From a virus (taxonomy: Duplodnaviria > Caudoviricetes): DNA of 64,000 nucleotides. The notes beneath the pieces are model-generated. The model made no database searches and was not told the origin of the DNA. It saw only the letters and a program-made list of their open reading frames with translations. The DNA is taken from IMG/VR virus record IMGVR_UViG_3300044551_000092, positions 96,001-160,000 of that record. One strand, 5' to 3'. Of the stretch, positions 3-57,666 are shown piece by piece. The position numbers and the translations under genes were made by a program. How positions within the stretch are numbered: the stretch's first letter is position 1; every line of letters starts with the position of its first letter.

Positions 3-191
3 TATGGGGTTCAGCTTCTGAATGAGGAAAGTGGCTATTCAGTTGATGATGTTGTTCTTTCCAAAGCTTACACTTTCGTGGCTCGTAAGGTTAAGCCTGT
101 TACTGAAAAAGAAAATCGTCGTTCTGCTGGACGTGCGAGTGGCAATGCGGTTGTTGACAATAAATCAATTGGCGGCGGCTACATTATCTAA
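3..191 (+). CDS. Tail tube protein, C-terminal fragment (5'-truncated by window; absent from ORF track)
   Basis: Frame 3 reads YGVQLLNEESGYSVDDVVLSKAYTFVARKVKPV...GGGYII*. This aligns with the C-termini of 922-1419 (LYGVSTYTEGMSMSIDN...FEFYALDIDP) and 1427-2209 (INGVQL...YSFIAQDL). A terminator follows. Confidence 0.7.
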   Translation, partial: YGVQLLNEESGYSVDDVVLSKAYTFVARKVKPVTEKENRRSAGRASGNAVVDNKSIGGGYII

Positions 192-207
192 ATGCTTTCT
201 AATTCTC

Positions 208-242
208 AAGGGAATGGTAGATCACCTGCCATTCCTTTTTTT
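208..242 (+). terminator. Intrinsic terminator
   Basis: Stem GGAATGGTAG (211-220), loop ATCAC, stem CTGCCATTCC (226-235, one G-U pair), then T7; directly after the tube-gene stop. Confidence 0.85.
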
Positions 243-258
243 AAAGGAGATCTTGTTG

Positions 259-6500: not shown

Positions 6501-9500
6501 TCCAACGTGACGGCTACGGGTGAAGAAAAATACAGCCATTCCTTTTTTCCGACAGCGGAAAACCCTCTTGGCTTTATCTCCTACTTAATCGGGACACGTG
6601 ATCCTTATTGGTATGAAAAGAAACACTATTTTGATCGGCCGTATCTCTTAACCGGTGATTTGTTTAATTCCAATACACCCTTTATCGGGGACATCGGCAA
6701 TATGACGATTGGTCAAGTCTTCAAACCAAGTCGTAAGATGCATGAAGACTATTGGGGGGATCCTGTACTAGTCCAAGAAGCAACTGATGAAGCAACGGAC
6801 CGTGATACAGAGAGGGGCGAGGGGTCGCTGGTGACTCGCGTTTCACCGTCCGGCCGCCGGGAAGAAGATGTTTTCAGTACACCTTCTGAATACGGCGCCC
6901 CGATGCAAGATTTTCCGCCGGCGGCTAAAGACAAAAAAGCGGCAAAAGATATTACCGACCGGGCCTATTATGTTGCGCAGATGAAGAATATTAGTACGGG
7001 TAAAGCTACGGGAGATGAGATCGTACGTGGCGTTGATTCCGGTCAAGTTGTCTTTATCCCGTCCCGTCAATCTGGGAATTATGCCTCTTATTCTCAGGCT
7101 TTTAAGGCGGCGGCAACAGCAGAGGCACAAAACCGAAAAATGAGGGAAAACCCACGTTCAAGAGAAATCAACAAGGATAAAATCATTTCAATGTATTATC
7201 CGGGACAAGAGCCAACCATGAAGCTCAAGCCTCGCGGTATCCATGATTTCGAATATCTTTATCAAAAAAGAGCGGATCATGATAAGCTGAGGCATCTTAA
7301 TGATCCTAATAATCTTAACTGGCGTCTGCAAAACTTGCAAAGTAATTGGTCAGAACCGGCCGGTATTTACAACTGGATTATCAATGATGAATTATTAAAA
7401 AACGATCCGTATCGCGATCAAAAAGTAATCGCAAAAGCTCATGACGCTTATGATTTCAACAGCCGTTTTTGGGATCAACAATATGGATCGCTCGGCGGAG
7501 AGCTTTCCGAAATAGGTCGTCGATTTATTCGTAAAGACAGCGGATTTATGGAGAAATATAACCCCATTCAAAATAGGATGCCTTCTTGGTTGCCCGGGTC
7601 GGATTATTTTCAAAATTTTCGAGAGGGAGACCCTTATACATTAATTCCGAATGGTGAATATCGTCTACCCGGGGAAGCGTATGAAAAACTTAATAAACTG
7701 CATCCAGACGAGACTGGACGATACGGAGCATTCGATAAATTTAAGATATTGGCTGATGTGGCTCCGTGGTCAAACGAGTATAACTTTTGGAAAGAGTACG
7801 TGAATGCTTTTACGACAGATAAAACATTAAGAAAACAATTTGCCGATATTAAACGGCAAGTATCTAAACGAAAAAAGAAATATGACTTTCAGCCCTATCA
7901 TTTTCGCAACACGGAACTGGAAAAACAACAAGTAACGGTTACGAAATTTCTTGACGACTATACTTTTCTCACCAAGGAGTTTGGCAATCAACCATTAAGA
8001 ATGGCTGGAATGGATGTCAGAGCAAAAGCTCCCGGAATTCTTCAGCAGTATTTCAAAACAGGCGATAAGATCACAATCGGTTTCAGTAAGGATCCAGTCT
8101 ATCAAAAAGCCAATGATACTTATGGGACGATGCATGTTGATGTCTTTGCGGGATTAAATAGTATTAACCAGCAAATTATCGCTCGCGGTCAAGCGAAAGA
8201 AAGTCCGAATGATTTCACACCGACGGGTGTCTGGGCTCGCTTCACACCTGAAGAAATTGCTCGCGGACACCGTTGGGAAAATGTCGCTCATTTTGAGTCA
8301 GCCTTAAATACAAAATTCCTTCACGTACGTTCCGCGGTAGAAGAATATGAGCGGGATCAGATTTATGGAAAAGACTGGTCTACATGGGAAAACTTTGGGA
8401 TCAGTGATTATTTAATACCAGCTGTCGAACGCATGATTGGAAATAGCAATCCATTAATGGCGACAATGAGCGGTGGACTAGTCGGTGGCTTTATTGGTCG
8501 TCTGTTTCTTGGCGGCGGCAAACGTACTAAAGCCGGATTAATTTTGGGGGCACTAACTGGTTTTGGTGCAAATATGTGGGGGAAATACTACGAGTATCGA
8601 ACCGGTAAGCGTTGGATCCCCAAACGTCGGCGGACTGAAAATGACATCAATGAATACTTTGATTTCTTAAAATACTTAAAATATCATGGACTTTATGAAG
8701 AAACCTCCCGTCGTGCGAAAAAGCAAGGTTATCATATTGACAAGATTTTGCAGAAGATCGATCAAAAGAAGCAAAGTACGAAAAAAGAACAACAAAAACT
8801 GATTGATGAAAAACGACGTCTATATATTCAGCAACCAAAGGATTTCGCTGAAAAAAGAAAAACAATTAACGCTAAGTTAAATAAGATCAGTGAAAATTGG
8901 AATATGGAACAATTACCGGATATTGTATCACAAACAATTTATTACAAAGATCAAATGGAAGCAACGTTATATGGGATGAACCCTAAAGGTGACTATTTGA
9001 ATTTAATGCGGGCACTTCCCTATAAAGATAAGTGGTTCTTTCAGGATTTTGCAAAAGCGGACTCAGAAGATCGAAAGAAAATCCTAAGTTTAATTCCCGA
9101 AAATGAGCGCCCCCTATATCTGAGTATTTGGGGGATGAAGCCTGATGAAAAGAAACCTGTTGCCTATTATCTCAAGAAATACAACATTCCTTCGGCAAAT
9201 TGGGCTGGATGGAGGCCAGATGTCAATCTGGAAGATGTTAAAGTCAAGGCAGTTAAAAATGCCGGACTTGATCTTAGTGATTTTAATTACTGGGATGATG
9301 ACTTGGCGGCTTCAAGATATGCGCCGGATATTAATTCACAAAATAACGTCTACAACCGTCCGGCGGCTTTTAAGGGTTATCATAACGTCGAACAGAATAT
9401 TCGAGAAATTATGGAGGGCTATAATCTGCGTAATGTACATGTAATCGCCAAACCCAGTCAAGGCGGGCTGACACAGGTAAATATTCAATATATGCAAGAT

Positions 9501-9554
9501 CGTAAAAAGGAAATTGAAAAAGAATTTAATTTAAATAGTCAAAATTACGTATAA
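3519..9554 (+). CDS. Giant virion protein (tape-measure/ejection-protein candidate) with hydrophobic segments and a degenerate SNase-like domain
   Basis: 2011 aa, first gene after chaperones. Gly-rich hydrophobic stretches at N-terminus (IALGAIAGAGLLAFG), middle (RILPIFGAVGLYGY) and C-terminal part (GGLVGGFIGRLFLGG...LILGALTGFG). SNase-like pattern at about 7930-8200. Confidence 0.6.
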   Translation: MDDLMEIVKPENYQDNQRSSKYYLYNEDERAEMPVYQKIALGAIAGAGLLAFGHRTGAVHKIARFLDRDIHISAKAWRSTINQESGLSKNLNWKRFDQTRQHFLNERKRLLAAYDKEKNPLNRREFDIQNYLNQRERLIGSEVNDEFTGEMAHVMNEDYRLRAIMQEIRQNEKISSAMADRIQVALGKGGVDDLRLRDDEHIRFLLNNQKINDHKIVDWVNASRHKYQNIDFLKNEELNPGGANFVRQMQEKMRDFTAHQLQYYNKKNGWIKSRIIGHKQATVGDILELHRRGVVNIDTHLRAQIHDALKYNKKFRDTVFDRNLYIKTRGGKPAGLMDYNAYHRIGQKTMEWWSHTLPGGLLHLRDFINSHEAREQAAFRIMKRESIQPMLNAQMGLANKNPLHQPVVFAMGRFVRLFDDGAVNHHTALNILNKKREMYLTSSRFGTLPKIVRSAAGLETKDKRRNLFTETFDLFNQGRDADSVEMLRMFTKYTDPTWERNVVRRVLSYGIKNNKEFYDIRKYFNRYTSGYTPRTLNRMKKIMPQYIQDYVEQNQLNFGDSEDLKKLFGYMGKHVSQKENPDFYRFHQEYLRNPNNILSYHRSLGNDNPIIGGNLKIQTGEDIIRQQVSREITRQIINRNAIKLGDKRASQVLFRKKLESMRLNDELLKGDLDKSIRAYNQYLFEEAGAEHFRHPQSSYKKINELFTGSENISRQFQKDMHQMYRQTNPIWEEYSPIKKPNPIGDDYLAVNRSFKTSDLLGRTKEFFTDIGDKAKQLALTTGRRNLEDVTTMSIFGGFYPAYRLQEALGAVGLGFSDESLGSPLSIWSSLMLKRILPIFGAVGLYGYADYKMQQDSGAGITERYENYKADRRTEAAQARYKLGQQDKLKHELQLKPGIDQFNEMPNVTLPIIGTRGPGDIFNTIASLVSRTPVTDYHNEDRMNVQETKEDLTSGVTPVRKGRWWAAGSRSAYVGDRIQQFKPNSYRLAHSDWEHSNVTATGEEKYSHSFFPTAENPLGFISYLIGTRDPYWYEKKHYFDRPYLLTGDLFNSNTPFIGDIGNMTIGQVFKPSRKMHEDYWGDPVLVQEATDEATDRDTERGEGSLVTRVSPSGRREEDVFSTPSEYGAPMQDFPPAAKDKKAAKDITDRAYYVAQMKNISTGKATGDEIVRGVDSGQVVFIPSRQSGNYASYSQAFKAAATAEAQNRKMRENPRSREINKDKIISMYYPGQEPTMKLKPRGIHDFEYLYQKRADHDKLRHLNDPNNLNWRLQNLQSNWSEPAGIYNWIINDELLKNDPYRDQKVIAKAHDAYDFNSRFWDQQYGSLGGELSEIGRRFIRKDSGFMEKYNPIQNRMPSWLPGSDYFQNFREGDPYTLIPNGEYRLPGEAYEKLNKLHPDETGRYGAFDKFKILADVAPWSNEYNFWKEYVNAFTTDKTLRKQFADIKRQVSKRKKKYDFQPYHFRNTELEKQQVTVTKFLDDYTFLTKEFGNQPLRMAGMDVRAKAPGILQQYFKTGDKITIGFSKDPVYQKANDTYGTMHVDVFAGLNSINQQIIARGQAKESPNDFTPTGVWARFTPEEIARGHRWENVAHFESALNTKFLHVRSAVEEYERDQIYGKDWSTWENFGISDYLIPAVERMIGNSNPLMATMSGGLVGGFIGRLFLGGGKRTKAGLILGALTGFGANMWGKYYEYRTGKRWIPKRRRTENDINEYFDFLKYLKYHGLYEETSRRAKKQGYHIDKILQKIDQKKQSTKKEQQKLIDEKRRLYIQQPKDFAEKRKTINAKLNKISENWNMEQLPDIVSQTIYYKDQMEATLYGMNPKGDYLNLMRALPYKDKWFFQDFAKADSEDRKKILSLIPENERPLYLSIWGMKPDEKKPVAYYLKKYNIPSANWAGWRPDVNLEDVKVKAVKNAGLDLSDFNYWDDDLAASRYAPDINSQNNVYNRPAAFKGYHNVEQNIREIMEGYNLRNVHVIAKPSQGGLTQVNIQYMQDRKKEIEKEFNLNSQNYV

Positions 9555-9569
9555 GGGGGCGCAGGATCA

Positions 9570-12500
9570 ATGGCTGAAGATAATCAATTCGAAATGAATC
9601 AATTGAGCCAAGAAATGGGTATTCCATTGGTGCGGCCCTCGGAGGGGCAATATCAGTGGGCGGCGTCCTTTCAACCTTTATATAAAACAAAAGCAACTAA
9701 CAATCAAGCTTATCAACAAAAGGTACAACGCATGGCACGTCTTATTTCCAATGAGAATGTGCAGAACTCGTTTAACGGGATGCCTATTTCGTTGAATGGA
9801 CACTATATCTATAAAAATCTTTCAACGCCCTACAACTACAATGCTCAGCAAAATATTAGAGATTTTCTAAAATTTAATCAGGCGGACAATTTTATGGCTT
9901 TTGATATAGAATCGATGGGCGATCCCGTAAATTTTGGTAAATTCGGTTTAACCGAAATCGCAGCGAATGAATTTACTCGGACAAATGGCGATATAAAATT
10001 GACACCGAATAGATTTTTCCGTCTGATTAATCCTGGTAAAGAAGTGCTCTATGATAGTGAAAGATTGATTCGCCAATTAGAAACAGATCCCTATGCGTTT
10101 CGTCGGATGAGCAATTATCAAAAAAGAAAACTAGTTGACTTGATGCGCTATTCGACTCTTCCTGAAAAAGGACAGGCGCCAGCGACATTTACTACAGAAA
10201 ACGATGTGGTTACCAACTTTAGACATAACTCCATTGCCTCAACATTTTTTGATAATGAGACTTTAAATGAAAATAAAGTAATTGCTGAAATGAATCGCGT
10301 GATTCCACATATGCGTTCTGGATTAAATATGCTTTCATCCAATCAGGCAATGAATTCTAAGAAAGCGTTGAGCCAATACAGTCAATTTGTCCGAAAGAAT
10401 CAAAATGTTTTTTTCCTTTCTCACAATGGAGCAAATTTTGATTTACCGGCCTTGCAAGCGGCCGCTCAAAAAGTCGGTGTAAGAATGGCACAACCCGCTA
10501 AACATCTTGATCTCTTGCAAACCATATCAACACTGTATCCAAATATTACGGATTTACATAGAGAACTTAATCCGAAATTTAACGGACGACTGCCAATGGG
10601 AGGTAGGAAGCTGCAGAGTCTGATTCAAACGCTTGGTTTGCAGGATACCGGTCTAGCCCATAGTGCAATGGACGATGAACAAGACATGGCAAGAGTGATG
10701 GCAAAGATTGGACCAGTCTTAAAAAATAAAATTGAAACCAGTAAAACGAAAATAAAAGAAGGATTTAATTATCATCCGACCGGTTTTTCATGGAATGACG
10801 AACCGTTGCGTGTGGGAGACCAACTTTTTGCGTCAGGTGGGGTAAAAGCATATTTGGATGGTGAATCTTCTTTTATGATGGAGGGGGACCGGCAGGGGCA
10901 TTACAAATTAAAGAATGATGGATTCAATACAACTTTTGTGAATGCCAAAACGTTTTATCAAGTGAAAGGCCTTCATGATTTATCTGATGAAAAGACAAGA
11001 CGTCTGGCACTGGAATTGTACGATAAAGAAAATGATCGAAAAGTTTTTATCAGTCGTGAGGGTGATCATGCATTCGACGAGATAGGTGCTTTTGTTCAAT
11101 CGCGTTTTTATAATTGGAGAGGCATCACACCGAATCAAAGACGGGAAATTGGACAAGCACATCTTCGTGATCAGGCTCGACGGCGTTATGAGAGCATGTT
11201 TAGCCTAGAGGGCGGTGGAACCGGTCTTACAAAAGGATTTGAAAGCGCAGAACGGCTATATGGAAATGCTGCGGTCTATGCCAAGCGTCTGGCCGGAAAG
11301 GAGAAAAATATCGAGCGCCGCGCCAGAGAACGGGCAAAAAAGAACGGAACAACCATAGCTGAAGAACGAAAAAAGCTGTTAACTCAGCGGATTACCCATG
11401 AAGAAATGTTACGGAGAATGGACTTTAACAGTCTACCGGTTAAGGATCCGACAACAGGCAAGCTGGCCACCGACGGCGCTGGTAATCTGATTAAAACGTT
11501 CAATCGCTCGGAACAGCAACAGTTCTTTAAAATGGCCCCCCGTCTTGTATCCGAGCTGCCGGTTTATGGTCCGGCAATTAATAAAATCAACCAGGTTTTT
11601 CAACCACAGATTGACCAGGCAGCAGGGGCTAAAGACTATAAGACTATTTTAAGACTTAAAAAGCAACGCGATGTTGCATGGAATCTCTATCATCAAAATG
11701 TCAAACAACAGCTAAAAAGTCAAGGACTGGATCACCTTGTCCCGACTGATCAAGTTGAACTGCCAGAATATGAGAATCGACGGATTCACTTTACTGATTA
11801 TGATAAGGGAATGAATACGCAGCGCTTACTGAATCTGGAAAGTGATCAATCCGCCCGGCAGTCGATTTACCGTTTTTTGAATCAAACCAAAAACACAGAA
11901 GAATCGGCAATACAGCACGCACGCAGGCAAAAAGAACGTCTCTATAAGATGGTCCGGTTTTTGGAAAGCGATAAGACGATCAAAGACGCTGGAGCCTACC
12001 GCTCAATTATTCAAAACACGGATTCAGTCAGTGACGCCGTCGATCAGTTTGTCTCTCGTCTGCGCAATAACGATGCGCTGCAAGAGACTACAAGGCAGCA
12101 GGTGTCACTAGCACGTAATGCTGCAGCGAGCCTTGTAAATCGTGATGCGCTTCGCATGAGGCTAAATAGCAGCATTCAGAAATCAAATCAGGTTTATGAT
12201 AATCTGTTTATTCCTCAACAGCCGGCCGGCACGCGGATTGCTTTCAATCGTGAAACAGAAGATCTATTTAAACGCCTTGATGAACGACATCCTGTAACTG
12301 GACTTGAACCGCATAACCGACAAGCAGTAGAAAGTTTGCTTGGCGATATTATGGAACGATATCCAAATATGCAAACGGCACTATCAATTGATCAGTCGAT
12401 CGGTAATGCCCGTATTTCGGTTTTTCGCCCTGAGGACAGTCGTAGTGTGACGGAACATCTAGCGGCTGGTACAAGCCATCCTAGAGCCTTAGAATTCGAG

Positions 12501-15500
12501 CTACCTTTGATAAATAGTCAAGGTACGCATGTAGTTGGTGGGAGGATTCTTAATGCACGGTCCTATCTTGATAAAACGTCTTCCGGCCAATTTCGCCTTT
12601 CCTCCTCATCAGAAATGATCGCCAATGCATATCGTCACAACTTGCCTAGTATCATGAAACGTTTACAGGACAACCAATTTGAAGAAGCCAATTATCGTTC
12701 GCGGCAAACACTAAATGACAGTATTAATGCTCTATCTGGTATCCAACGTACCGTTGACATAAATGAGAATGACAACGATGTTTTTCAGCATTCTCAGAAA
12801 GATATTACAAACCAGGCGCAAGTTGATGTACAGCGAGGAATGATTCGTGATTGGATTGATACTGGTAAACTAAATCCACGGGAGGACTTAGAATCCTCTG
12901 CATTCATCAACGGAAAGTTAAAACATAACTTGACCTTGAACGATGTGAAGTATAATCGGCAACAGGAATTGCTTCGAGAAATGGGCCGTTGGGCGAATGA
13001 AAATCGTGAACGCATCGGGGTGCCACTATATATCTCCGGCGTCAAAGACGTTCATGCAACCAGGGGAATTATGTCCCGCTTAGATGCTCGTGATTTTCAG
13101 CCATTCGGACATTTTGGGAATCAAGGCCGTCCTAATGCCATTCAGTTTACGAATGCTTTTCCCATCAATGAAGATGTACAAAAAAAACTGGATATGCAGA
13201 AATTCTATTATGCTTATGAAAGCAACGTAACGACGCCGACGGAAGATGCCATTAATGAGTTGTGGCGCAGTTTTCCAGAGAATGCGGGGAATTATAATAG
13301 CGTCAATTTGAAGTTTGGATTTATTGATAATCAGACGCTTTATAAACGGATGGAGGCGTTGCGTGAATCACATGCGGCTGATCTTCGAGAAATGGGAATA
13401 TTACAGGATGACGGTTCATGGAACCCGGCCACTTTTCCCCGAGTTTATGAGCAACAGGCGGCGATGGCCAACGAATTATTGGACAGTATGAGTTACACGG
13501 GGCATCAAATACTTAGCCATAATGAAGGATTTGAATTGGCAGAAGGACTAAGTGAAGGACAGATTGTAAAACCGGGCACCATTGTCGGCACAGAAATTCA
13601 GGAGGGGGTTCGAGTACCTGTTCGCTGGGAAAGGCCATATGAGGGGAGGCTGTCAATGCAAAATGGTCAGACTGCCGTCACTTATACTCGCCACCCCTAT
13701 AAATATATTCTCGAAGGAGAAAAGGTCACTCCATCGCCGGTTCCACAGAAACTGTTACAAATGATTACCGGAGACAAAGACATTGTCGGTCTTATTAATC
13801 CAAATATTCAAAAGCACCAGGATTTTAATTTGCTTTTATCCGGTCAATCACGGATCCTTGCGAATCATTTATCTGATCTTGAAAATCAAATTGATCAATC
13901 TCAAACTCAGCAGCAAGCAAAAAAATTATTGCAGCAAAAAAGGAATATCCTGCAAGCGATTAGGGAAAACAATATTCCACTGCAATGGGATGGCCAAGCA
14001 CGTCATTTCACAGACATATCAGCTTCAATGAGATCTGTAAATGGCGGTAAGTTAGAAATAAATAGCGATGCTTTGGATAAGGTTTTTGAGGCTGGTGGAA
14101 TAAGTCATGCTACAAAAGAAGGCATACAGTCGGGGATCTTAAAAACGATTATGTCTCACGTGGAAGACTATTCGAAAGCTGTTGATTATACGGGGCGACG
14201 GATCATCGGGCATGATGAGAACGGTCCGATTTATGGTAGTGAACGTGCGGGCTTTCGTGCCGGACATCGAGAGATGTGGTCGTTTAAACAGCAAGGGCTG
14301 AATCAAACTTATGATTTAGTGGCTCAAAACATGATTGATGAGGCAAAAGGCATGGATAGCTATGCCTTACACGCCCGTCCCAAACGTCGCTTAATATCCC
14401 GCTACGATGAGGCCCGCAATCTATTGAACACATTAAGTAATACGGTACATTCAACAGATTCCAGTATTTCGAAAACTGACGCACTTAGCATTGATAAATT
14501 TGAAAATTTACCGGTTGAGGAAAAAACACGCTTTGGTTATGCAGGAACCATTTTTGATCGTCAACGGATTCAGGAGTTCGGATTTTGGTTAAAGCTACCG
14601 ACAACCAAATTATCGAATGGACAAGAAATAAAACCGACAATAAATTTAAATGGTCCGGAAGCACCGCCTACTCCCGTCGATCGTATTTTTATGCCCTTTA
14701 CAAATCTTGAAGGAGCATCCGGCCAGATCCATCTGCGAAATTTACAACAACAGATGGCAGCAGTATATCGTCGAGCACAAGACGTAGAGAAGCAGACCAG
14801 CATTTCTGCCCGTCAAAAAGCGGGAGAAGGTCTGCAACGGTCCATCAATAATTATTTCGACAATATTATTTATCAGGCATCGGCTTCAAAAGGTTTAATT
14901 GGTGATACCTTAACAACTCGGTTGAGCAATACCTTCACGGGACGTACAAAAGTCATCGATCCTAGAATTTCTCGTCAGATGAATGGCGATTATGCGATGA
15001 TTTCTGAACAGCGAGCAAAAGACCTTGGAATTTATGACCGATTGAAAGCTGGACAAGCTGTTTATGGGATGCATACACGTTACCCGACATTTCATACTCA
15101 CGCATCGCAAATAGCAAAAATTAAAATGGACCCACATATCAACGATCAAAATATCCATCTAAATTCACTATTAGCCGATTTAACAGGAGCCGATAGCGAT
15201 GGAGATGTAGGCCATCTATGGGTTGCACGTGATGCAAAGGGGCATATCTATGATCATATTCAACATGAGTGGGCAAACCGCTATAAACAAGATCAAGAAT
15301 ACAGAGAACAACTTTGGCAACAACATCTTGCTGATTTTGAAAAAGAAAATCCACATGCATTAGATCAGCTTGCCGGAGATAAGATTGTTGCCAGCTCACC
15401 GAATAATGATGCTGAAGTCATGGCTCGCATCGGCAAACGTTATATCGGTGAAGCTTCCAATCTTGGGTTAGCCATGCGTGCCGCTTCTGAACAATATCTC

Positions 15501-16520
15501 AATAATCAACCGGGGGCTTTACAGGCCATTCGAAATTTTACTCAGGCTTTAGAACAGAAACCTATCTCATCAAAACACATGAAAGAAGCCCCCGAACGTT
15601 TAGTTCCAGCCGCAGAACTTATTTCTGCAGTTCGAAGTCAGGACTTTGATCGAGCACGGGCCATCGACGAAGTGTATTACGGTGGTGAATTTGCGGGAAA
15701 ACATTCCATGAATGAAGCCTTTGAAGCAATGAATCAGATTAACAACCGATTTAATCTAACAGATTCAGCTTTTAAAGTAGGGACCAGTCGAGGCATACGC
15801 CCCGAAAAAGGTTTGCGTCAAGCCTATAATGTTTTATCGGGTAATGGATCAGAAGGAAATTTACAAACAAACAGTCAATTGGAACTAACGCGTCATCTTT
15901 TAGAAAATCAACCGCGTGTTCGCATTTCTCCTAAAGAAGCAATGATGCGTGATCAGATGTATGATAATTCAAGTGGCCTAACAGACCGTGTGCGGCCAGA
16001 ATTGCGTAAAGGCCTAGGAGGGGCTGCGGCGGATACAATCGAAGATTTAACAGGTAACACTAAGGGTGTTTCACAACCTTTAGGTAAACAAACAGAAAAT
16101 CTATTCAATAAACTAAAAACAAGTCCGAAATTTAGAAAAGGCGCTTTTCTAAGTGCTCTTGCTCTTGGTGGGCTGGCAGGTTACAATATTCTTAGACATA
16201 ATCAACCGATTGATATGGAAGAAGCGGAGCAGGGAGATGGCCATTTTATGCCTGCTCCAGCCCCGGAAAGCCCCATTACTTCTAATTTTCAAGAACCTGA
16301 AACACAAAATGCAGATATTACTGTGTTCGCAACTGGACATAAAAATCAGCCACAAATGTTAAGCCAAATGGCGGCACAAGGGATCCAAGAATCATACATG
16401 AATCCTTCTCATACGAACTTTAACGTCCATGTTCAGGATAACTCTTCAAAATTAAGTCGTTTCTGGTATCGAGATCAGGTACAGAAAAATATAGATAATA
16501 AAGTTCAAGACAATGATTAA
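9570..16520 (+). CDS. Single-chain two-barrel (beta/beta'-like) RNA polymerase fused to N-terminal DEDDh exonuclease; putative virion RNAP
   Basis: Exonuclease motifs FDIE, HNGANFD, HSAMDD. Beta-like PFGHFGNQGRP, KYILEGEK, DIVGLINP, GFRAGHREMW. Beta'-like LQRSINNYFDN, RYPTFH, GADSDGD (15186-15206), QALEQKPISSKH. C-terminal hydrophobic GAFLSALALGGLAGY. Confidence 0.85.
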   Translation: MAEDNQFEMNQLSQEMGIPLVRPSEGQYQWAASFQPLYKTKATNNQAYQQKVQRMARLISNENVQNSFNGMPISLNGHYIYKNLSTPYNYNAQQNIRDFLKFNQADNFMAFDIESMGDPVNFGKFGLTEIAANEFTRTNGDIKLTPNRFFRLINPGKEVLYDSERLIRQLETDPYAFRRMSNYQKRKLVDLMRYSTLPEKGQAPATFTTENDVVTNFRHNSIASTFFDNETLNENKVIAEMNRVIPHMRSGLNMLSSNQAMNSKKALSQYSQFVRKNQNVFFLSHNGANFDLPALQAAAQKVGVRMAQPAKHLDLLQTISTLYPNITDLHRELNPKFNGRLPMGGRKLQSLIQTLGLQDTGLAHSAMDDEQDMARVMAKIGPVLKNKIETSKTKIKEGFNYHPTGFSWNDEPLRVGDQLFASGGVKAYLDGESSFMMEGDRQGHYKLKNDGFNTTFVNAKTFYQVKGLHDLSDEKTRRLALELYDKENDRKVFISREGDHAFDEIGAFVQSRFYNWRGITPNQRREIGQAHLRDQARRRYESMFSLEGGGTGLTKGFESAERLYGNAAVYAKRLAGKEKNIERRARERAKKNGTTIAEERKKLLTQRITHEEMLRRMDFNSLPVKDPTTGKLATDGAGNLIKTFNRSEQQQFFKMAPRLVSELPVYGPAINKINQVFQPQIDQAAGAKDYKTILRLKKQRDVAWNLYHQNVKQQLKSQGLDHLVPTDQVELPEYENRRIHFTDYDKGMNTQRLLNLESDQSARQSIYRFLNQTKNTEESAIQHARRQKERLYKMVRFLESDKTIKDAGAYRSIIQNTDSVSDAVDQFVSRLRNNDALQETTRQQVSLARNAAASLVNRDALRMRLNSSIQKSNQVYDNLFIPQQPAGTRIAFNRETEDLFKRLDERHPVTGLEPHNRQAVESLLGDIMERYPNMQTALSIDQSIGNARISVFRPEDSRSVTEHLAAGTSHPRALEFELPLINSQGTHVVGGRILNARSYLDKTSSGQFRLSSSSEMIANAYRHNLPSIMKRLQDNQFEEANYRSRQTLNDSINALSGIQRTVDINENDNDVFQHSQKDITNQAQVDVQRGMIRDWIDTGKLNPREDLESSAFINGKLKHNLTLNDVKYNRQQELLREMGRWANENRERIGVPLYISGVKDVHATRGIMSRLDARDFQPFGHFGNQGRPNAIQFTNAFPINEDVQKKLDMQKFYYAYESNVTTPTEDAINELWRSFPENAGNYNSVNLKFGFIDNQTLYKRMEALRESHAADLREMGILQDDGSWNPATFPRVYEQQAAMANELLDSMSYTGHQILSHNEGFELAEGLSEGQIVKPGTIVGTEIQEGVRVPVRWERPYEGRLSMQNGQTAVTYTRHPYKYILEGEKVTPSPVPQKLLQMITGDKDIVGLINPNIQKHQDFNLLLSGQSRILANHLSDLENQIDQSQTQQQAKKLLQQKRNILQAIRENNIPLQWDGQARHFTDISASMRSVNGGKLEINSDALDKVFEAGGISHATKEGIQSGILKTIMSHVEDYSKAVDYTGRRIIGHDENGPIYGSERAGFRAGHREMWSFKQQGLNQTYDLVAQNMIDEAKGMDSYALHARPKRRLISRYDEARNLLNTLSNTVHSTDSSISKTDALSIDKFENLPVEEKTRFGYAGTIFDRQRIQEFGFWLKLPTTKLSNGQEIKPTINLNGPEAPPTPVDRIFMPFTNLEGASGQIHLRNLQQQMAAVYRRAQDVEKQTSISARQKAGEGLQRSINNYFDNIIYQASASKGLIGDTLTTRLSNTFTGRTKVIDPRISRQMNGDYAMISEQRAKDLGIYDRLKAGQAVYGMHTRYPTFHTHASQIAKIKMDPHINDQNIHLNSLLADLTGADSDGDVGHLWVARDAKGHIYDHIQHEWANRYKQDQEYREQLWQQHLADFEKENPHALDQLAGDKIVASSPNNDAEVMARIGKRYIGEASNLGLAMRAASEQYLNNQPGALQAIRNFTQALEQKPISSKHMKEAPERLVPAAELISAVRSQDFDRARAIDEVYYGGEFAGKHSMNEAFEAMNQINNRFNLTDSAFKVGTSRGIRPEKGLRQAYNVLSGNGSEGNLQTNSQLELTRHLLENQPRVRISPKEAMMRDQMYDNSSGLTDRVRPELRKGLGGAAADTIEDLTGNTKGVSQPLGKQTENLFNKLKTSPKFRKGAFLSALALGGLAGYNILRHNQPIDMEEAEQGDGHFMPAPAPESPITSNFQEPETQNADITVFATGHKNQPQMLSQMAAQGIQESYMNPSHTNFNVHVQDNSSKLSRFWYRDQVQKNIDNKVQDND

Positions 16521-16535
16521 AGGGTGTGCTTATTC

Positions 16536-19500
16536 ATGGCAGTTTCAGTGCCGACTCTGGATGATCGTGACTTCCTATATGGAGAACTGCCAGAGCATCA
16601 TCTCAGAATCGGAGATAGTCAATTTCTAATTCCTCCGACTTCAATCCAAGTTAATCAGACTATGAAGACTGAGAAGATTACGATGTTGCGTTCAAGGGGG
16701 AGCCTGCCGGTTCAATCCGGATATAGTGAGCAATTCATCACTATATCATTGTTTTTCCCTAACGAAGATGCAATTAACTATGAAATGCGTCCTCTCCTTG
16801 CGCAGATGAAAAAATGTCCTTTTCTACCAATAGAGAATACTTATTTAAACAATGTCTATAAGATTAATGCTATTGTAATTAATGATGTCACCGCACAAAC
16901 AAATCCTGGTTTTCCTGGAACGATGACCTTGCTTGTACAGATGTTTGCATTTGACCCGGCAACGTATATCTATGGAAGCAGTGATAAAGACTTTAATGAT
17001 ATGTTCAACTGGCCTTTGTTTCGCTGGTATTATGAACAAAACCTGATACCGCAAACTGACCAACGACATGCCACTTACTATGAGCCATTGACAGAACCAT
17101 TAAATGACAGTTTTTTCTTCAAAATAGCTTCTGAAGATGACCTGATTGCGATGCGGCAATGGCGATTAAAAAAAACAAAATTGATTCAAGACTGGGCTCA
17201 GCAAAATAAAAGCTGGAGTTTTAGTGATTTCTTTGGATTTCTAAAAGGAAAAGTTGGCCAGATTTTTGGGCATTCCTATAAATCAGAAGAAGAACAGTTC
17301 GATGATGATTTAGATAATCTTTATCACAATGCAATGTTTGATTACGATATAAGTTATGAGCCGTGGCCAACCGGTGATCTTATTTTAACGGATCTGGCAG
17401 TGTCTTTTGAAAATCATCTTTCAACAATGCAGCTTGAAATGGATGAAAATCCGACCTATCAATATTTGGGATCCGGAGACGTAACAATTATTGCAAGCTT
17501 TGAAGCCAGCGACGAAGAATCCTTAGCCAGTCTGCAGAATCTAATTGATCGCGGGAACTATTATCTACGGACCTATCGAGAAGAAATGTTGACCGGAGCG
17601 ATTGAATTTGACTGCCAGCTTGCTCGGTTATTCGGAATCAAAAATGTTGTTATCAGCAATATGGTTGTTGATACAGTGGAAAATCAACCCGGGGTTTATT
17701 CGGTCAAACTGACCATGTACGGCTATAACCGAATTGCTAAAAAAATGAATGAAGTCCGTGCAATGACTCTCGGCCTAGAATGGAGTAATGGCGGTACAAA
17801 TGCATTAAAGTATATCATTCCATTTGTGGGTCCGGTATTATTCGGCGCTGATCGCCCCTTCTTTAAAGTTTTCACCAACTATATGAAGGATGTTGGCGAT
17901 GATATAAAAGTGACAAAAGATGGCGTACAACTAGCCATCTACCAATCTGCTGTATTAGAAACTTTTAAAATGGCCGAAGTGTATCCGGATCTGGAGTTGC
18001 CAACCTATGATGAAGTTGAAGCAGCCGGTTTTTCAATTAAAAACTTGAATGACGGCATCTTTGTAGATCCGGATTTCTTTTTAGTCTATGATGACATCGA
18101 AGATTATGCCAGACAGGTAGACACCGTATTCAAGACGGGTGGAGATAAGTTTGGCCTTCGTTTGGAAGATATGACAGGAAACAATGCTTCTGTAGATGGG
18201 ACAAAAATAAAGCCGGCTAAAGACGATAAAAAGAAGAAAAGTACAGGGCTCAAATCATCGCCGCCCAAAGAAACAAAGTTGGATACCAAAAATAATTCAA
18301 CTGATCAGAATGAAAAACTTTTACGCCAGGCTGCCAAAAAATATGGCATTTCGGATAAATTTATTGTCGGCTTTGCAACTTCTTTCGATCCGAAGCTCAG
18401 GCAGTATTACGACAAGGGTGCCAATCCTGACTTTAATTATTTATACTCTTCTCAAGAGACCTCAACGATCACTCAAAAGCAGGATTTAAAATATACAATT
18501 GGTCAAGAGGGCGCTGATTATTATTATGGTGTAATGCGAGTACGTCCGACACTGGGCTATTCCGTCCTGCTTGAAAAACGCACGGATTATAATATCGATC
18601 AAGGCACGCGGGCGATGGCGGTCTCTATCGCACATTTAAGAGCCGGATATGATGATAAAAATGATTATCACTATGAGCATTTAGCGAATGCTTTTGATTT
18701 AGACTTATCCTCAAAAGAGGATGCTAGTTTGTGTGAATTCATGGGCGGTGTAATGATTTATTTAGGTTATGAACGAGAACTAGCAGAACTATTAAAGAAT
18801 AATCGTCAACTTAGTAGTCAGCTTTCGGGTATGTTAAAAGATATGGTTTCAACGATCAAGAAAACGGATGGCGGGACCTCTAAAACGGATCTAATTAAAT
18901 TACCTGTTAAAGATTATAAAAATATCTCCGATTATAAAGCTCCATCTACACTAGTAGCAGGAACTCAAATAAACGAAGATGATTTTGGAGATTTAGAATC
19001 CTCTACAATTAAGGCCAGCATGTGTCATGATACGATATTATATGATCATCGTGGGCGACTGGTTCGTGCATTCCCTTCCTTTTTTATCGCCTTTATTGAC
19101 GAGGGGCGGTATGTTGGAACGTCCAGGATGTCAGACCAGTTCTTTCAATATCGCGGGGTTACTTCGATTGAATATGATTATACGAGAAAAAGTGCTGCGA
19201 ATACCTTATTTTTAACGATGAGCAATGTCTACGGATCACTGTCAGATTCAGAAAAAGCGCAGGATTTAACTTATTCGAGTACGTGGGATGTTTTTCAATC
19301 ATTGATAAACCCGGCGTCTGCCGCCGACCAGCTTGAGCGAAGCCGGCACCGTGATCCAAATTACTATAAAACAATTATGTTGACGACCGGCACACGGGTT
19401 CATTTCAGGATGGGTTATGGTTCAAATATTCAAATGATGCCAACGATCATCAACGGGACGATTACATCAATTGAAAACAAAATGGAAACTCTTCACGTAG

Positions 19501-22500
19501 CGGTTCAAGGCGATGGCATTGAACTGACAAATAAGCTGAATGCCGTGTATGGCCCAGATGATAGCACGGAAACCTTTCTTCATTCTAAAAAAGAGCCCAC
19601 GGAAATTTTAGACGAGTTGTTGACTGATTCTCAGGGCTTCTGGCACGACTTGATCGCTGGTCTTTCCAACTCAGAATTTAATAATCATTCGTTGGGTATT
19701 ATGCACTTCGGTGCGCCGGGGCCGCCGGAAGGGTGGAATGATGTTGGTTTTCAGCCTTTTCTAGAAAGCATTAACCCTAAAAATTGGTTTGGTGCTTCTC
19801 GTAAAATTGGCGAAGTTAATATGAATGTCTATAATACCAATGGTCTAACTCATAAAGAGGAAGACACCTGGTGGAATAATATTCGCAACACGTTGGGTTT
19901 TGGAGACAGCGATGAGGATAATATCAATATCAATTTGTTTGATAAAACCTTTTGGGATATTGTGAATATCTGTGCGGCCATTGGTGATGATTTTATTGCA
20001 GCGGTTCATCCGTTTGATTTTCGCAGTACCATCTTTATGGGGAAGCCTTATTTCCCGCTTCACTACGGCTATCAGGTAGCGCTTGGACAAGTCGTTGGAA
20101 CAAAAGTGAAAGTCTTTCGTCAGCTGCATTCCTATGATAGTTATACAAATATCATTAATAATGCGGTCTTGGCGTCGGAAGAAAATATGTACAACGTGGC
20201 TGTGGGTACATATATGGATGAGGGAAAGACTCGGACAACTCAGCCCGTCTATGTTGACACAAATATTTGGCCGGAAAAGCAGCGGACCGTAAATATTGAT
20301 ACAACATTAAATGCCAAAGGGATGAAATTTGTAGATAAAATTCCCCTGATTGGCGGCCTACTCAATAAACCAGCTAAATGGTACTTCGATGAAGGAGTCG
20401 CTTTAAAGATTACGGCAGCTGGCTTGCGGGATTATGTCAAAGATATGTACCAAGGGTATTTAACAGTAATGGGCGATCCTTCTGTTAAGCCTTATGATCA
20501 ATGCTTCATGCAAGATGAATTTAATCTGATGTCCGGTACGTTTGATGTCAAAGAGATTATTCACTATTTTGATAAAGAGAATGGCTTTATCAGCATGATA
20601 AAACCAGACATCATCGCTTTCAATAACGATCGAAGAATCTACTCACTCGGGACAGAAGCCATGCATGTCCTATGTGCAGCCTCGACGACTTGGGTCTTGC
20701 GAAAGATTTTACGATCCAAGGGTTACAACACAACACTTCCAGTTATGAATGCCATCTGGTCCAGTACTCGGAAATCTTTAGTCTATGCAAAGCAAAAATT
20801 TGATACTAAAAAATTAAAATCAAAAATTCAAGAATTCTATGGCAATCACATCAAGGGAGCAACTGAACAAGCTGTTACGGATGACATGGAGAAAGCAGCG
20901 GCTGCTGAAAATGTGTCACGGAGCAAGCAGCAAATTTCTGCATCGACCATAAAAAAATGGGTAAAGAACGGTTCATTAAAAAGCGCCGCGAAAAATTTGA
21001 AAGATGTCAGTGCTGAAGAACTTCAAGCTATCCTCAAAGGAGGAAAGTCTGCACTATCCAATCTGAAGTTTACAAAAAATCTTGGCATAGAACGCAGCAA
21101 ACTTCTTCAGCTTAGTAAACGATCGGCCAGCGGCTTATTAAAGGGGGCAAAGTTTGCCGCTGGCGGGGCGGCAAGAGGCGGTAAGTACCTTGTTGGGGCA
21201 AGTTCATTACTTGCGGGACCGCCCGGTTGGGTTGGATTTGCTCTTGAATCAGCCCTAACTTTTGTTGGGACAGCAACAATTGGCGAATTTTTGCATCGTT
21301 TCTTAGCAAATCGACATTCTGTCGTTGTCGTCCCATTAATGAAGGATGGGGTGGCTTTCTGTGCCGGACTGAATGGCCATAAAGGAGCTATCCTCGGTGA
21401 CTCTCCCGATATGATTAGTTGGCTGTCCAATACTTTTATTGGTGATCTTTTCTTAGGATTCACTGGAGTTGATACGAGTGACTTAAACGCATCATCTCAG
21501 TCAGTTTCTATTCAAATGCAAGTCCCAGCCTCAACATATAACGATAAAACAGCAAAAAAGAAAAGTCAGCCGACACAACAAGAAGACGCCGAGACCTGGT
21601 TGAATCAAATTTACCGACGACCGATCATGTATGACCCTGAGATTCAAAAACTTTATGATGCCGACTATGCCGCAAAAGAAAAAGAATGGAAGGATCATCT
21701 AGATGAACTAGGTAAAGGACTGGAAAGTGCATTATATGCCGACTATAGTAAACTGTTCAACCAGGGGCAAGAGTTCATCAATGAACTTCAGAAAATGTTT
21801 AGTAATTTCTTGAATTCAGTCTTCGGCGATAATGATGATTCGGGCGGCGGATCAGTTGATGGGAAAGCTGTCCATATTTCCGCACAGGTTAAAAAATATC
21901 AATCAAAAATTGAAAAATATGCAAAGAAATACAAAGTAGACGGCTATGTGCAACTGCTAATGGCGATTATGATGCAGGAATCCGGCGGACGTGGCAATGA
22001 TCCAATGCAGTCCGGCCAATCCAGTCCAGACGCTTCGATCAAACGGGGCTGTGCCGTTTTTAAAGAATCTTTAGATCATGGTCATAAATATGGTATGAAA
22101 ACAGTTATACAAGGCTATAACATGGGGCCGGGCTTCTGTGATTATGTAGGTAAGCACGGTAAAAAATTCAAAAGCTCCTTAGCTTATTCTTTTTCAGCCT
22201 ATATGAAAAGCAAACATGGTTATCGGGTATTCGGTGATCCCGATTATGTTGCGCATGTCCTGCGTTATTATGAAGGGAGTCTTGAGCCTTCATCCGGCGG
22301 TTCGGGCGATGCGCCAAGTACTGTTGGATCAGCAGGAAAGAAAAAATATCATTTAAGTCAATCCAAAGCAAAGAAGACACTCATTAATTTGCACAGCCAA
22401 AAGGGAAAACACTTTGGCCTAACTCTTGTAGATAGTGGTAGTGGCTTAATTCGGAAAGGTTCTTATGAAGTCCTTAATAATATAGCAGAAAAATATAAGA

Positions 22501-22832
22501 AAGAAACCGGTCAAACATTGAACGTGACCAGTGCTTACCGTCCGGGTGATTCCAACTGGCATGGGACTGGTTATGCGGTGGATGTTGATACGCCAAACAC
22601 AATGGTGCGTCAACGAAACGGTAAACTTGGTTTCAAAATGAACAGTAAAGATCGAAAGAATGCCGAGAAATTAGTGAATATCGCTGCTCAATGTGGTATG
22701 GACGGATTTGTCTTTGGGGATTACTCCCTTCTTCAGGAAGTCAAAAGTAAACACAAGGGTCTTGTCACTCAGTACCGGCCGCAGGACCACTACAATCACT
22801 TTCATATGTCCTATCCAAAGAAGAAAAAATAA
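16536..22832 (+). CDS. Multidomain baseplate hub / tail lysin (gp27/gpD-like hub + CwlT-like lysozyme + M15 peptidase)
   Basis: Hub-like GTRVHFRMGYGS...INGTIT and GYLTVMGDPSVKPYD...EIIHYF. Lysozyme-like MAIMMQESGG..DPMQ...QGYNMG...GDPDYVAHVLRYY. M15-type TSAYRP...HGTGYAVD...HFH. Start set at ATG 16536 (track start GTG 16524). Confidence 0.8.
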   Translation: MAVSVPTLDDRDFLYGELPEHHLRIGDSQFLIPPTSIQVNQTMKTEKITMLRSRGSLPVQSGYSEQFITISLFFPNEDAINYEMRPLLAQMKKCPFLPIENTYLNNVYKINAIVINDVTAQTNPGFPGTMTLLVQMFAFDPATYIYGSSDKDFNDMFNWPLFRWYYEQNLIPQTDQRHATYYEPLTEPLNDSFFFKIASEDDLIAMRQWRLKKTKLIQDWAQQNKSWSFSDFFGFLKGKVGQIFGHSYKSEEEQFDDDLDNLYHNAMFDYDISYEPWPTGDLILTDLAVSFENHLSTMQLEMDENPTYQYLGSGDVTIIASFEASDEESLASLQNLIDRGNYYLRTYREEMLTGAIEFDCQLARLFGIKNVVISNMVVDTVENQPGVYSVKLTMYGYNRIAKKMNEVRAMTLGLEWSNGGTNALKYIIPFVGPVLFGADRPFFKVFTNYMKDVGDDIKVTKDGVQLAIYQSAVLETFKMAEVYPDLELPTYDEVEAAGFSIKNLNDGIFVDPDFFLVYDDIEDYARQVDTVFKTGGDKFGLRLEDMTGNNASVDGTKIKPAKDDKKKKSTGLKSSPPKETKLDTKNNSTDQNEKLLRQAAKKYGISDKFIVGFATSFDPKLRQYYDKGANPDFNYLYSSQETSTITQKQDLKYTIGQEGADYYYGVMRVRPTLGYSVLLEKRTDYNIDQGTRAMAVSIAHLRAGYDDKNDYHYEHLANAFDLDLSSKEDASLCEFMGGVMIYLGYERELAELLKNNRQLSSQLSGMLKDMVSTIKKTDGGTSKTDLIKLPVKDYKNISDYKAPSTLVAGTQINEDDFGDLESSTIKASMCHDTILYDHRGRLVRAFPSFFIAFIDEGRYVGTSRMSDQFFQYRGVTSIEYDYTRKSAANTLFLTMSNVYGSLSDSEKAQDLTYSSTWDVFQSLINPASAADQLERSRHRDPNYYKTIMLTTGTRVHFRMGYGSNIQMMPTIINGTITSIENKMETLHVAVQGDGIELTNKLNAVYGPDDSTETFLHSKKEPTEILDELLTDSQGFWHDLIAGLSNSEFNNHSLGIMHFGAPGPPEGWNDVGFQPFLESINPKNWFGASRKIGEVNMNVYNTNGLTHKEEDTWWNNIRNTLGFGDSDEDNININLFDKTFWDIVNICAAIGDDFIAAVHPFDFRSTIFMGKPYFPLHYGYQVALGQVVGTKVKVFRQLHSYDSYTNIINNAVLASEENMYNVAVGTYMDEGKTRTTQPVYVDTNIWPEKQRTVNIDTTLNAKGMKFVDKIPLIGGLLNKPAKWYFDEGVALKITAAGLRDYVKDMYQGYLTVMGDPSVKPYDQCFMQDEFNLMSGTFDVKEIIHYFDKENGFISMIKPDIIAFNNDRRIYSLGTEAMHVLCAASTTWVLRKILRSKGYNTTLPVMNAIWSSTRKSLVYAKQKFDTKKLKSKIQEFYGNHIKGATEQAVTDDMEKAAAAENVSRSKQQISASTIKKWVKNGSLKSAAKNLKDVSAEELQAILKGGKSALSNLKFTKNLGIERSKLLQLSKRSASGLLKGAKFAAGGAARGGKYLVGASSLLAGPPGWVGFALESALTFVGTATIGEFLHRFLANRHSVVVVPLMKDGVAFCAGLNGHKGAILGDSPDMISWLSNTFIGDLFLGFTGVDTSDLNASSQSVSIQMQVPASTYNDKTAKKKSQPTQQEDAETWLNQIYRRPIMYDPEIQKLYDADYAAKEKEWKDHLDELGKGLESALYADYSKLFNQGQEFINELQKMFSNFLNSVFGDNDDSGGGSVDGKAVHISAQVKKYQSKIEKYAKKYKVDGYVQLLMAIMMQESGGRGNDPMQSGQSSPDASIKRGCAVFKESLDHGHKYGMKTVIQGYNMGPGFCDYVGKHGKKFKSSLAYSFSAYMKSKHGYRVFGDPDYVAHVLRYYEGSLEPSSGGSGDAPSTVGSAGKKKYHLSQSKAKKTLINLHSQKGKHFGLTLVDSGSGLIRKGSYEVLNNIAEKYKKETGQTLNVTSAYRPGDSNWHGTGYAVDVDTPNTMVRQRNGKLGFKMNSKDRKNAEKLVNIAAQCGMDGFVFGDYSLLQEVKSKHKGLVTQYRPQDHYNHFHMSYPKKKK

Positions 22833-55869: not shown

Positions 55870-55876
55870 GGAGAGA

Positions 55877-57653: not shown

Positions 57654-57666
57654 GGAGGGGTGGCAG

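Follow-up and report, generated by a model that had tools for sequence, protein, structure and literature searches.

The stretch of DNA analysed here, called the window throughout, comprises 64,000 nucleotides (nt) of a 206,290-bp IMG/VR virus record that is rated 100% complete (IMGVR_UViG_3300044551_000092, positions 96,001 to 160,000). The large genes of the window all lie on the plus strand, and three giant open reading frames (ORFs) of 2011, 2316 and 2102 amino acids (aa) follow one another in succession (Table 1). The middle one, stored as P0001 and free of internal stops, is the target of this study. It lies downstream of a pair of tail chaperone genes, with one gene between as in the Bacillus phage 0305phi8-36, and upstream of a baseplate hub gene, which is the position of a tape measure. 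The nearest cultured relatives of the hub ORF come from the jumbo myophages 0305phi8-36, vB_BauM_KLEB27-3, vB_BceM_WH1 and Edson (Bacillus) and from MTATph1 (Moorella). Our results strongly support the reading of the C-terminal half of the target, comprising at least aa 1120-2060, as an RNA polymerase (RNAP).

An initial annotation of this DNA, made from the letters and their translations, had proposed a single-polypeptide two-barrel RNAP in which beta and beta' are fused. All the motifs it quoted are present in the translation where it had placed them, and the fused two-barrel enzyme is now backed by profile matches to RNAP largest subunits, by the occurrence of the Pfam family PF00623 in homologues and by a template-free structural model. 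The region was correctly recognized, while the extent assigned to it (13080-15600) did not hold, the folded module being wider and covering at least aa 1120-2060. Residue counts such as 51/51 in Table 1 refer to A3, a 55-sequence alignment of homologues.

Table 1. Features of the target gene and its neighbours, with positions in the window
Feature	Position	Strand	Residues	Observation
Tail chaperone gene pair	2256-2684 and 2691-3503	+		Homologous to 0305phi8-36 gp143/gp144, blastp E 5e-22 and 1e-15
Upstream 2011-aa giant	3519-9554	+		Homologue of virion protein gp145 of 0305phi8-36, blastp E 3e-104
Target, whole gene: giant in tape-measure slot	9570-16520	+	1-2316	Open frame; collinear 2200-2700-aa homologues, identical gene order
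N-terminal DEDDh 3'-5' exonuclease	9867-10694	+	~100-375	ExoI D112/E114, ExoII N286/D291, ExoIII H364/D369
Middle region	10887-12926	+	440-1119	Possible beta N-terminal motif PLINSQGTHVVGG at aa 979-990
Predicted beta/Rpb2-like half, first double-psi barrel	12927-14369	+	1120-1600	VIA-align Z up to 15.7 against bacterial beta
Opening beta-like motif of the initial annotation, FQPFGHFGNQGRPNAIQFTNAFP	from 13095	+	from 1176	Present in translation
FG-x7-R-x-N-x2-Q-x2-N	13104-13154	+	1179-1195	G1180 47/51, R1187 47/51, N1189 47/51, N1195 46/52
E1294 in Y-E/D-Q/G motif (YEQQ at aa 1293)	13449-13451	+	1294	Acidic 53/53: E40/D13
KYILEGEK (13701-13724, aa 1378-1385), K1378-x6-K1385-x-T1387	13701-13730	+	1378-1387	K1378 54/54, K/R1385 53/53, T1387 53/53
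GFRAGHREMWSF, motif of the initial annotation	14250-14285	+		Present in translation
GFRAGHRE, resembles beta GQRFGEME	14250-14273	+	1561-1568	E1568 49/51, G1565 42/51
Predicted beta'/Rpb1-like half	14445-15749	+	1626-2060	Clamp-like coiled coil, second double-psi barrel, bridge-helix-like helix, trigger-loop-like element
RYPTFH, equivalent to beta' NRAPTLH / Rpb1 R446-x-P448	15078-15095	+	1837-1842	R1837, P1839 each 51/51
DSDGD, catalytic metal-binding loop	15192-15206	+	1875-1879	D1875, D1877, G1878, D1879 each 51/51; aligned to beta' NADFDGD (HMMER, hhalign)
Long helix, AR-GK--IG---N, candidate bridge helix	15408-15497	+	1947-1976	G1960 52/52, K1956 47/52, N1964 44/52; model helix 828-857
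QALEQKPISSKH, candidate trigger loop	15543-15578	+	1992-2003	Q1996 46/51, I1999 50/52, K2002 51/52
Gly/Ala-rich hydrophobic segment GAFLSALALGGLAGYNIL	16137-16193	+	2190-2208	Kept as G-LALGG---YN-L in 41 homologues
C-terminal module	16302-16508	+	2245-2313	Common to 0305phi8-36 gp146; 41-sequence profile, hhalign 95.6%, E 1.2e-8
Baseplate hub giant, 2102 aa, lysozyme-like domain	16524-22832	+		phrog_20474 full length; Pfam Lysozyme_like E 1.7e-28

Eight residues are common to all two-barrel RNAPs, namely R446, P448 and three aspartates of Rpb1 and D837, K979 and K987 of Rpb2 (PMC2919709). In the target, R1837, P1839, the three aspartates, E/D1294, K1378 and K/R1385 match that set in kind and order, and the conservation anticipated for D1875, D1877, D1879, K1378 and K1385 is borne out at each position (Table 1). 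The DxDGD motif stands at the equivalent place in 59/59 full-length homologues, its second residue varying among S, Y, F, N, A, M, Q and T. As judged from these alignments, the putative catalytic residues are under strong purifying selection. K1378 and K1385 form the basic pair of the beta-type barrel, which can be compared with KFASRHGQKGT of Rpb2, and E1294, by its place in the order of the motifs, is a candidate equivalent of Rpb2 D837 and beta D814. The motif at aa 1179-1195 resembles PF..H....R of beta and Rpb2 as judged by eye only, and RYPTFH is paired with NRAPTLH in both hhalign and HMMER alignments.

Searched against 177,635 PDB sequences, the A3 profile retrieved almost only RNAP largest subunits: gp55 of the phiKZ non-virion RNAP (nvRNAP; the best match, E 1.7e-6), RNA polymerase V (6.4e-6), bacterial beta' (6.2e-5), RPB1 of African swine fever virus (ASFV; 2.4e-4) and AR9 beta' (4.3e-4), with alignments that span the SGR motif, NRxPT and DxDGD in that order. 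With hhalign, 134 columns of the family profile fell on residues 324-483 of Escherichia coli beta' (probability 80.6%, E 1.3e-5). The Pfam model RNA_pol_Rpb1_2 (PF00623) gave matches in 19 of the 23 members of a second alignment, A2, two of them over the gathering cut-off; this cut-off, 25.3 bits, is passed by the homologues P0015 (28.5) and P0017 (26.4), and within the clade of P0001 itself P0034 reaches 24.2 bits. A six-frame scan of the 206-kb genome produced a single PF00623 match (13.7 bits), located at window 15018-15233 in the DSDGD region, and no match to PF00562 (RNA_pol_Rpb2_6) at E <= 1. At the level of sequence, P0001 is a remote relative of PF00623 and not a threshold-level member.

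The predicted structure extends this picture to both halves of the enzyme. An AlphaFold2 model of aa 1120-2060, computed without templates from A3, has a mean predicted local distance difference test score (pLDDT) of 92.1, a predicted template-modelling score of 0.89 and no segment below 50, and Foldseek returned at least 500 PDB matches to it at E <= 0.001; among the matches listed, all are RNAP second-largest subunits (about 500-530 columns) or largest subunits. VIA-align was run independently of Foldseek over 48,161 representative chains, and a second VIA-align comparison covered the top 1000 Foldseek chains. The polymerase fold predicted by the model agrees with the one first proposed, the first half matching beta/Rpb2, the second beta'/Rpb1 and the whole QDE-1 and gp96 of Thermus phage P23-45. 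Over model residues 1-481 the highest score (Z 15.7) was obtained with residues ~537-1305 of E. coli and Vibrio beta (root mean square deviation, rmsd, 4.3-4.6 A over 377-391 residues). Other matches to this half were the beta-like subunits of the AR9 (14.6) and phiKZ (14.5) nvRNAPs, for which the range in both runs was 14.5-15.1, ASFV RPB2 (14.4-14.9; rmsd 3.5 A over 316 residues) and, among the representative chains, A135 of RNA polymerase I (14.1) and bacterial beta (14.0). Model residues 507-941 matched the largest subunit of RNA polymerase I (11.6), Rpb1 (11.1) and Mycobacterium tuberculosis beta' (9.3), and model residues from about 2 to 929, which span both halves, matched QDE-1 (11.4 over 390 residues), P74-26 gp62 (9.3) and P23-45 gp96 (8.1-8.4 over about 305 residues). 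That such single-chain enzymes can be aligned to both halves means that the halves are placed relative to each other as in a polymerase, and the two barrels are predicted to face each other as in solved polymerases.

Smaller elements of the model point the same way. Isolated double-psi beta-barrels (designed DPBBs and the CDC48/VAT N-domain) superpose on model residues 667-800 with an rmsd of about 2 A (Z 8-9.8), and the active-site barrel element of beta' is reproduced as an IHLN strand, an LLADLTG helix, an ADSDGD loop and a VGHLW strand. An RNAP clamp domain matched model residues 491-662 at Z 7.5, a value within the range of common arrangements, and the clamp-like element predicted there is suggestive. 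The conserved Q-x2-ISSK[HK] stands at a helix end and adjoins the one loop that was modelled with low confidence (block 881-890, pLDDT 59); the model and the conservation are compatible with the proposed bridge helix and trigger loop, which is short of proof. In the ESM Atlas, the clusters nearest to the model consist of phage proteins in which Rpb2_6 and Rpb1_2 are fused (TM score 0.49-0.56 over 472-591 residues). The closest viral fold neighbours of the model, from BFVD, are A0A8S5SD80, a 'minor tail protein' of the gut siphophage Siphoviridae sp. ctnpt50 (E 1.8e-18, TM 0.55), and the uncharacterised proteins A0A172Q021 and A0A075BUT7 of Acinetobacter phage ME3 and Microcystis phage MaMV-DC. 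Such neighbours hint that tail or giant proteins may widely contain RNAP modules that have escaped annotation.

The polymerase had been described as hidden, and this is fair: with the target alone, Pfam and PHROGs give nothing but a weak DEDD-exonuclease match at aa 258-338. A tblastn search with the target against 50,697 phage records gave no match at E <= 1e-5, and a word-indexed homologue search with aa 1120-2060 returned the self-match only. An exhaustive HMMER search with the same residues identified 42 clusters at 50% identity (28 with E < 1e-30) of homologues that are mostly 2200-2700 aa in length and 28-36% identical. Named members from Parageobacillus galactosidasius, Oceanobacillus profundus, Bacillus stercoris and a Bacilli metagenome-assembled genome are all labelled 'hypothetical protein', and no family entry seen in the databases has a label other than 'hypothetical', 'structural protein' or 'DNA polymerase III epsilon-like'. 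Through P0002, a relative encoded by a 264-kb IMG/VR phage, 21 further members of its subfamily were identified. Among the cultured phages, KLEB27-3 gp034 (2434 aa) and WH1 gp095 (2515 aa) are positional orthologues, collinear with P0001 and weakly similar to it (blastp E-values of 2e-17 for the N-terminus, 7e-6 for aa 1120-1268 and 0.009 for aa 1830-1879), and both have NRYPT...ADxDGD at the matching place. In the 23-sequence alignment A2, P0001 is ~20% identical to every other row; the A2 profile found no RNAP match among PDB sequences, and AlphaFold with this shallow, distant alignment yielded a model of pLDDT 38.7 that was discarded. The RNAP profile match and the good model were obtained only once the exhaustive HMMER search had added closer relatives.

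Outside the polymerase module, the DEDDh exonuclease is intact as far as motifs and profile can tell. All eight of its signature residues, D112, E114, N286, D291, H364 and D369 among them, are unchanged across 31 homologues, and its profile matched exonuclease I, the exonuclease domains of PolB and PolC, DnaQ and TREX2 in the PDB (E 3e-7 to 1e-4); the target alone gives a weak Pfam RNase_H_2 match in this region. The middle region, aa 440-1119, had no match among PDB sequences or in Pfam and no usable one in the ESM Atlas. A conserved PLI---GTH--G at aa 979-990 (window 12504-12539) resembles PLMTDNGTFVING of beta, and the top hhalign match of the region is to residues 100-171 of E. coli beta at only E 0.094, so that the polymerase may begin upstream of the modelled part. 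Towards the C-terminus, a Gly/Ala-rich hydrophobic stretch is followed by a Pro-rich linker and the terminal module; the segment at aa 2190-2208 lies under a strict Kyte-Doolittle transmembrane threshold.

Analysis of the local genomic region places this protein in a conserved tail module. In 0305phi8-36, the chaperones gp143/gp144 are followed by the virion protein gp145, the 'hypothetical tape measure' gp146 and the hub gp147; the order in the window is identical, and the target therefore occupies the gp146 slot. The two chaperone genes have one domain in common (E 2e-12), the hub giant is homologous to gp147, and the ORF at 24289-25155 encodes a gpJ-like baseplate protein, the counterpart of gp151. 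The order of chaperones, giant, target, hub and baseplate is kept in 0305phi8-36 and WH1 as well as in two metagenomic relatives; KLEB27-3 has the first giant divided into two genes, and in MTATph1 the gene in the target slot is disrupted by a transposase. Gene order and relatives thus confirm the context originally suggested, after the tail chaperones and before the baseplate hub of a contractile-tailed Bacillota phage.

The 2011-aa giant upstream of the target also matches WH1 gp096 (blastp E 5e-164) and MTATph1 CDS0026 (2e-162). This gp145 family is far better conserved across the lineage (E 3e-104 to 5e-164) than the RNAP-bearing giant. The protein is an equally good candidate for the tape measure as the target is, and it may be either the true tape measure or another enzyme. 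It has a single hydrophobic segment, at aa 1646-1665, and in one metagenomic relative the gp145-type counterpart is a protein of 2367 aa (L011:1956-9059) with an intein and a LAGLIDADG endonuclease.

The protein with which the target shares its slot, gp146 of 0305phi8-36, is a virion protein by mass spectrometry according to its database record, and its tape-measure role was assigned chiefly from a correlation with tail length (PMC2147016). It resembles the target in its size of 2537 aa, in the homologous last ~65 residues and in an ExoI-like motif. It differs in having no RNAP module: no DxDxD occurs anywhere in gp146, and the RNAP profile does not match it (hhalign probability 3.6%). The module is therefore present in only part of the lineage. 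The slot as a whole is modular. In gp146 (L001:9651-17261) the ExoI-like LDIETTG lies near aa 1210; in MTATph1 (L002:9766-17122), where a transposase interrupts the gene, the exonuclease occupies aa ~860-960 of CDS0027; and all have no more than the last ~65-220 aa in common.

Outside the window, the genome encodes a second RNAP of the YonO type, related to the RNA-dependent RNA polymerases (RdRPs). This 1151-aa ORF (G000:C1, about 54393-57848, minus strand; L003:370-3822) gives the sole PF05183 match in the genome (E 1.1e-10), contains the motifs GRNPAI...ADNDGDE, sits among minus-strand early-type genes and is likely the non-virion polymerase. The idea that the two RNAPs are recent duplicates is unsupported, the A3 profile matching the YonO-like ORF at E 0.19. 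CCGAYAGG tetraloop hairpins, also outside the window, number 17 against 5.9 expected; in nine of them, on the plus strand of the 9.8-53 kb region (G000:C1 9790-53124), the stems are 3-6 bp long and differ in sequence. They may be signals for one of the phage RNAPs or, alternatively, terminators.

These observations suggest that the target is probably a tail-module giant whose single-chain two-barrel RNAP is carried in the virion and delivered for early transcription. Packaging and injection would be in keeping with synteny, with the 'structural protein' labels of database entries and with the C-terminal module shared with gp146. The beta/Rpb2-like part would supply the barrel with K1378, K1385 and the acidic E1294, and the beta'/Rpb1-like part directly after it would supply the barrel with R1837, P1839 and the loop D1875-x-D1877-G-D1879, followed by the bridge-helix-like and trigger-loop-like elements. 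The giant protein would be assembled into the tail together with the neighbouring giants, and contraction of the sheath would expel it into the host envelope or cytoplasm. Having refolded at the entry site, the RNAP would transcribe the first phage genes from the entering DNA, independent of the host RNAP, and these first transcripts may include the gene of the YonO-like RNAP, in the manner of the P23-45 relay of two polymerases. A possible trimming role for the exonuclease, on 3' ends of DNA or RNA where the phage DNA enters, is the least certain part of the scheme and is offered as speculation.

Several findings weigh against this interpretation and are best considered together with the alternatives to it. 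With regard to location, mass spectrometry has verified just one protein of the slot in virions, gp146, and this has no RNAP module; virion location is therefore transferred to the target only by synteny and by the short module at the C-terminus. For KLEB27-3 and WH1, the structural label of the positional orthologues is a database annotation. In addition, a folded polymerase module of ~105 kDa cannot fit in that state in a tail tube, so that delivery needs an unfolded or otherwise stored form. The absence of the module from gp146 would suit a genuine two-barrel RNAP that is not a virion component, whose late synthesis would follow simply from the position of its gene in the tail operon and which would work in the producing cell (for example in late transcription or priming), or one that is packaged in the head rather than the tail, as are the injected RNAPs of N4 and crAss-like phages (discussed in PMC10770324). 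We regard such a role as unlikely, given that the gene lies between chaperones and hub in every relative examined, that its C-terminal module is common with a virion protein, that orthologues carry structural labels and that a separate, non-structural YonO-like RNAP is already present in the genome.

With regard to the enzyme itself, phmmer with the target alone found no match among PDB sequences, P0001 alone scores 13.6-13.7 bits against PF00623, under the cut-off of 25.3, and the best hhalign match of the beta-like half to E. coli beta, at the GQRFGEMEVWALEAYG motif (beta residues 1267-1286), has a non-significant E of 0.28. The assignment of this half comes from the predicted structure and the conserved motifs. 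A structural tape-measure or ejection protein descended from an RNAP, with the polymerase fold kept and the enzyme lost, would account for the failure of both the beta-like half and P0001 alone to match Pfam models significantly, and giant tail proteins do evolve fast and acquire domains. The chance of this is very small, however: the three Asp, R-x-P, the two basic residues and the acidic residue are invariant in 51-59 homologues that are only 16-35% identical, an invariance not expected of a pseudo-enzyme. We give as little credence to a two-barrel polymerase of other chemistry, be it an RdRP like QDE-1, a DNA polymerase or a primase, with the DEDDh domain as its proofreader. A fused DEDDh domain whose closest matches are ExoI, the PolB/PolC exonuclease domains and DnaQ is typical of DNA polymerases, and QDE-1 aligns across both halves of the model (Z 11.4), but the best structural and sequence matches are subunits of DNA-dependent multisubunit RNAPs (Z 14-15.7). 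Moreover, the NADFDGD-type loop, SGR, R-x-P-T-x-H and the clamp-like element are of beta' type, the RdRP family PF05183 matches another gene and not the target, and archaeal PolD is absent among the matches listed.

A virion-delivered RNAP in the tail module has a precedent in P23-45, whose virion RNAP, fused to the tape measure, transcribes pre-early genes, including the gene of the nvRNAP (PMC10770324). The target resembles P23-45 gp96 (PMC10770324; PDB 8H2M/8H2N) in being a single-chain two-barrel RNAP inside a giant of the tape-measure slot, to which its model can be aligned across both halves. Both proteins have a hydrophobic segment elsewhere in the chain, and each phage has a further two-barrel RNAP, of the non-virion kind. 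The RNAP of gp96 is N-terminal in a 5002-aa protein of a non-contractile siphophage, whereas that of the target lies in the C-terminal half (aa 1120-2060 of 2316), preceded by the exonuclease and a 680-aa region, in a contractile-tailed jumbo phage. The two have no detectable sequence similarity; the target has a DEDDh exonuclease in addition and yielded no metallopeptidase. The target is structurally nearer to multisubunit beta/beta' (Z about 15) and may keep a clamp-like element, the match there having Z 7.5; gp96, by contrast, is described as a flat enzyme that lacks a clamp.

Likeness to the nvRNAPs of phiKZ and AR9 (PDB 7OGP, 7S00) is seen in the best profile match (phiKZ gp55) and in the top structural matches (Z 14.5-15.7). 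In common with multisubunit RNAPs generally, the conserved motifs run in the order of beta and then beta'. The target differs from these in that both halves are fused in one chain within a structural-module protein, with neither separate subunits nor any sign of alpha-, omega- or sigma-like partners. What can be recognised of beta is roughly its C-terminal 60%, and of beta' only the N-terminal part. With YonO of SPbeta and QDE-1 (PF05183) it shares the presence of both barrels in a single polypeptide, although PF05183 does not match the target. An 84-aa stretch with a beta-rich insert between the acidic residue and the two lysines, together with the beta'-type motifs, places it nearer to the multisubunit type than to YonO and QDE-1. 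Virion RNAPs embedded in giant proteins are known in crAss-like and N4-like phages. Where PMC10770324 deals with gp66 of phi14:2, a crAss-like phage, it is a single-chain two-barrel RNAP in a ~2180-aa virion protein delivered to the host. The target is likewise a single-chain two-barrel RNAP inside a giant protein that would, by analogy, be delivered, whereas phi14:2 is podovirus-like and its gp66 is thought to be carried with head or cargo proteins. No sequence similarity to gp66 was found, and its absence among the structural matches listed is uninformative either way.

Earlier work on 0305phi8-36 and jumbo phages mentions only the YonO-like enzyme (PMC2147016, PMC2919709, PMC7824862), and the supplement of PMC10770324 does not mention 0305phi8-36, WH1 or KLEB27. 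In full-text searches the target's RNAP family was nowhere described, and none of the papers and database entries consulted reports a fusion of an exonuclease with a single-chain RNAP of this type. The concept of a virion RNAP fused to a tape measure is already known from P23-45 (PMC10770324). The target family is set apart from gp96 by host and phage type, position of the module, likeness to beta/beta', the exonuclease and the lack of a sequence relation. To our knowledge, an RNAP in a tape measure protein was previously known from one phage group only, Thermus phage P23-45 and its relatives; the same strategy now appears in an unrelated lineage, the contractile-tailed jumbo phages of Bacillaceae. 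The family comprises at least 42 clusters at 50% identity and a 22-member sister subfamily, including the cultured phages KLEB27-3 and WH1, and its members represent a compact, exonuclease-fused, single-chain form of the enzyme, whose predicted structure is closer to cellular beta/beta' than those of YonO and gp96 are. How transcription starts in 0305phi8-36-like phages and what role oversized tail-lumen proteins play become testable questions. Annotation pipelines overlook such enzymes unless profiles built from family alignments or structures are used.

A more ambitious picture, which we offer tentatively as falling a little short of an even chance, is that contractile-tailed jumbo phages of Bacillota inject a self-contained 'first-minute' machine by way of the tail. 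In one polypeptide it would join a DEDDh exonuclease to a single-chain beta-beta' RNAP of multisubunit-like type and a tape-measure-type anchor, and it would start the relay to the YonO-like enzyme and so make early infection independent of the host RNAP. The BFVD neighbours hint that tail-embedded polymerases are a widespread and overlooked strategy rather than an oddity of Thermus phages. At the start of the window, just upstream of the tail-tube paralogues, lies a gene for a PhoH-like ATPase (22-906, plus strand; phrog_170, E 4.7e-49).

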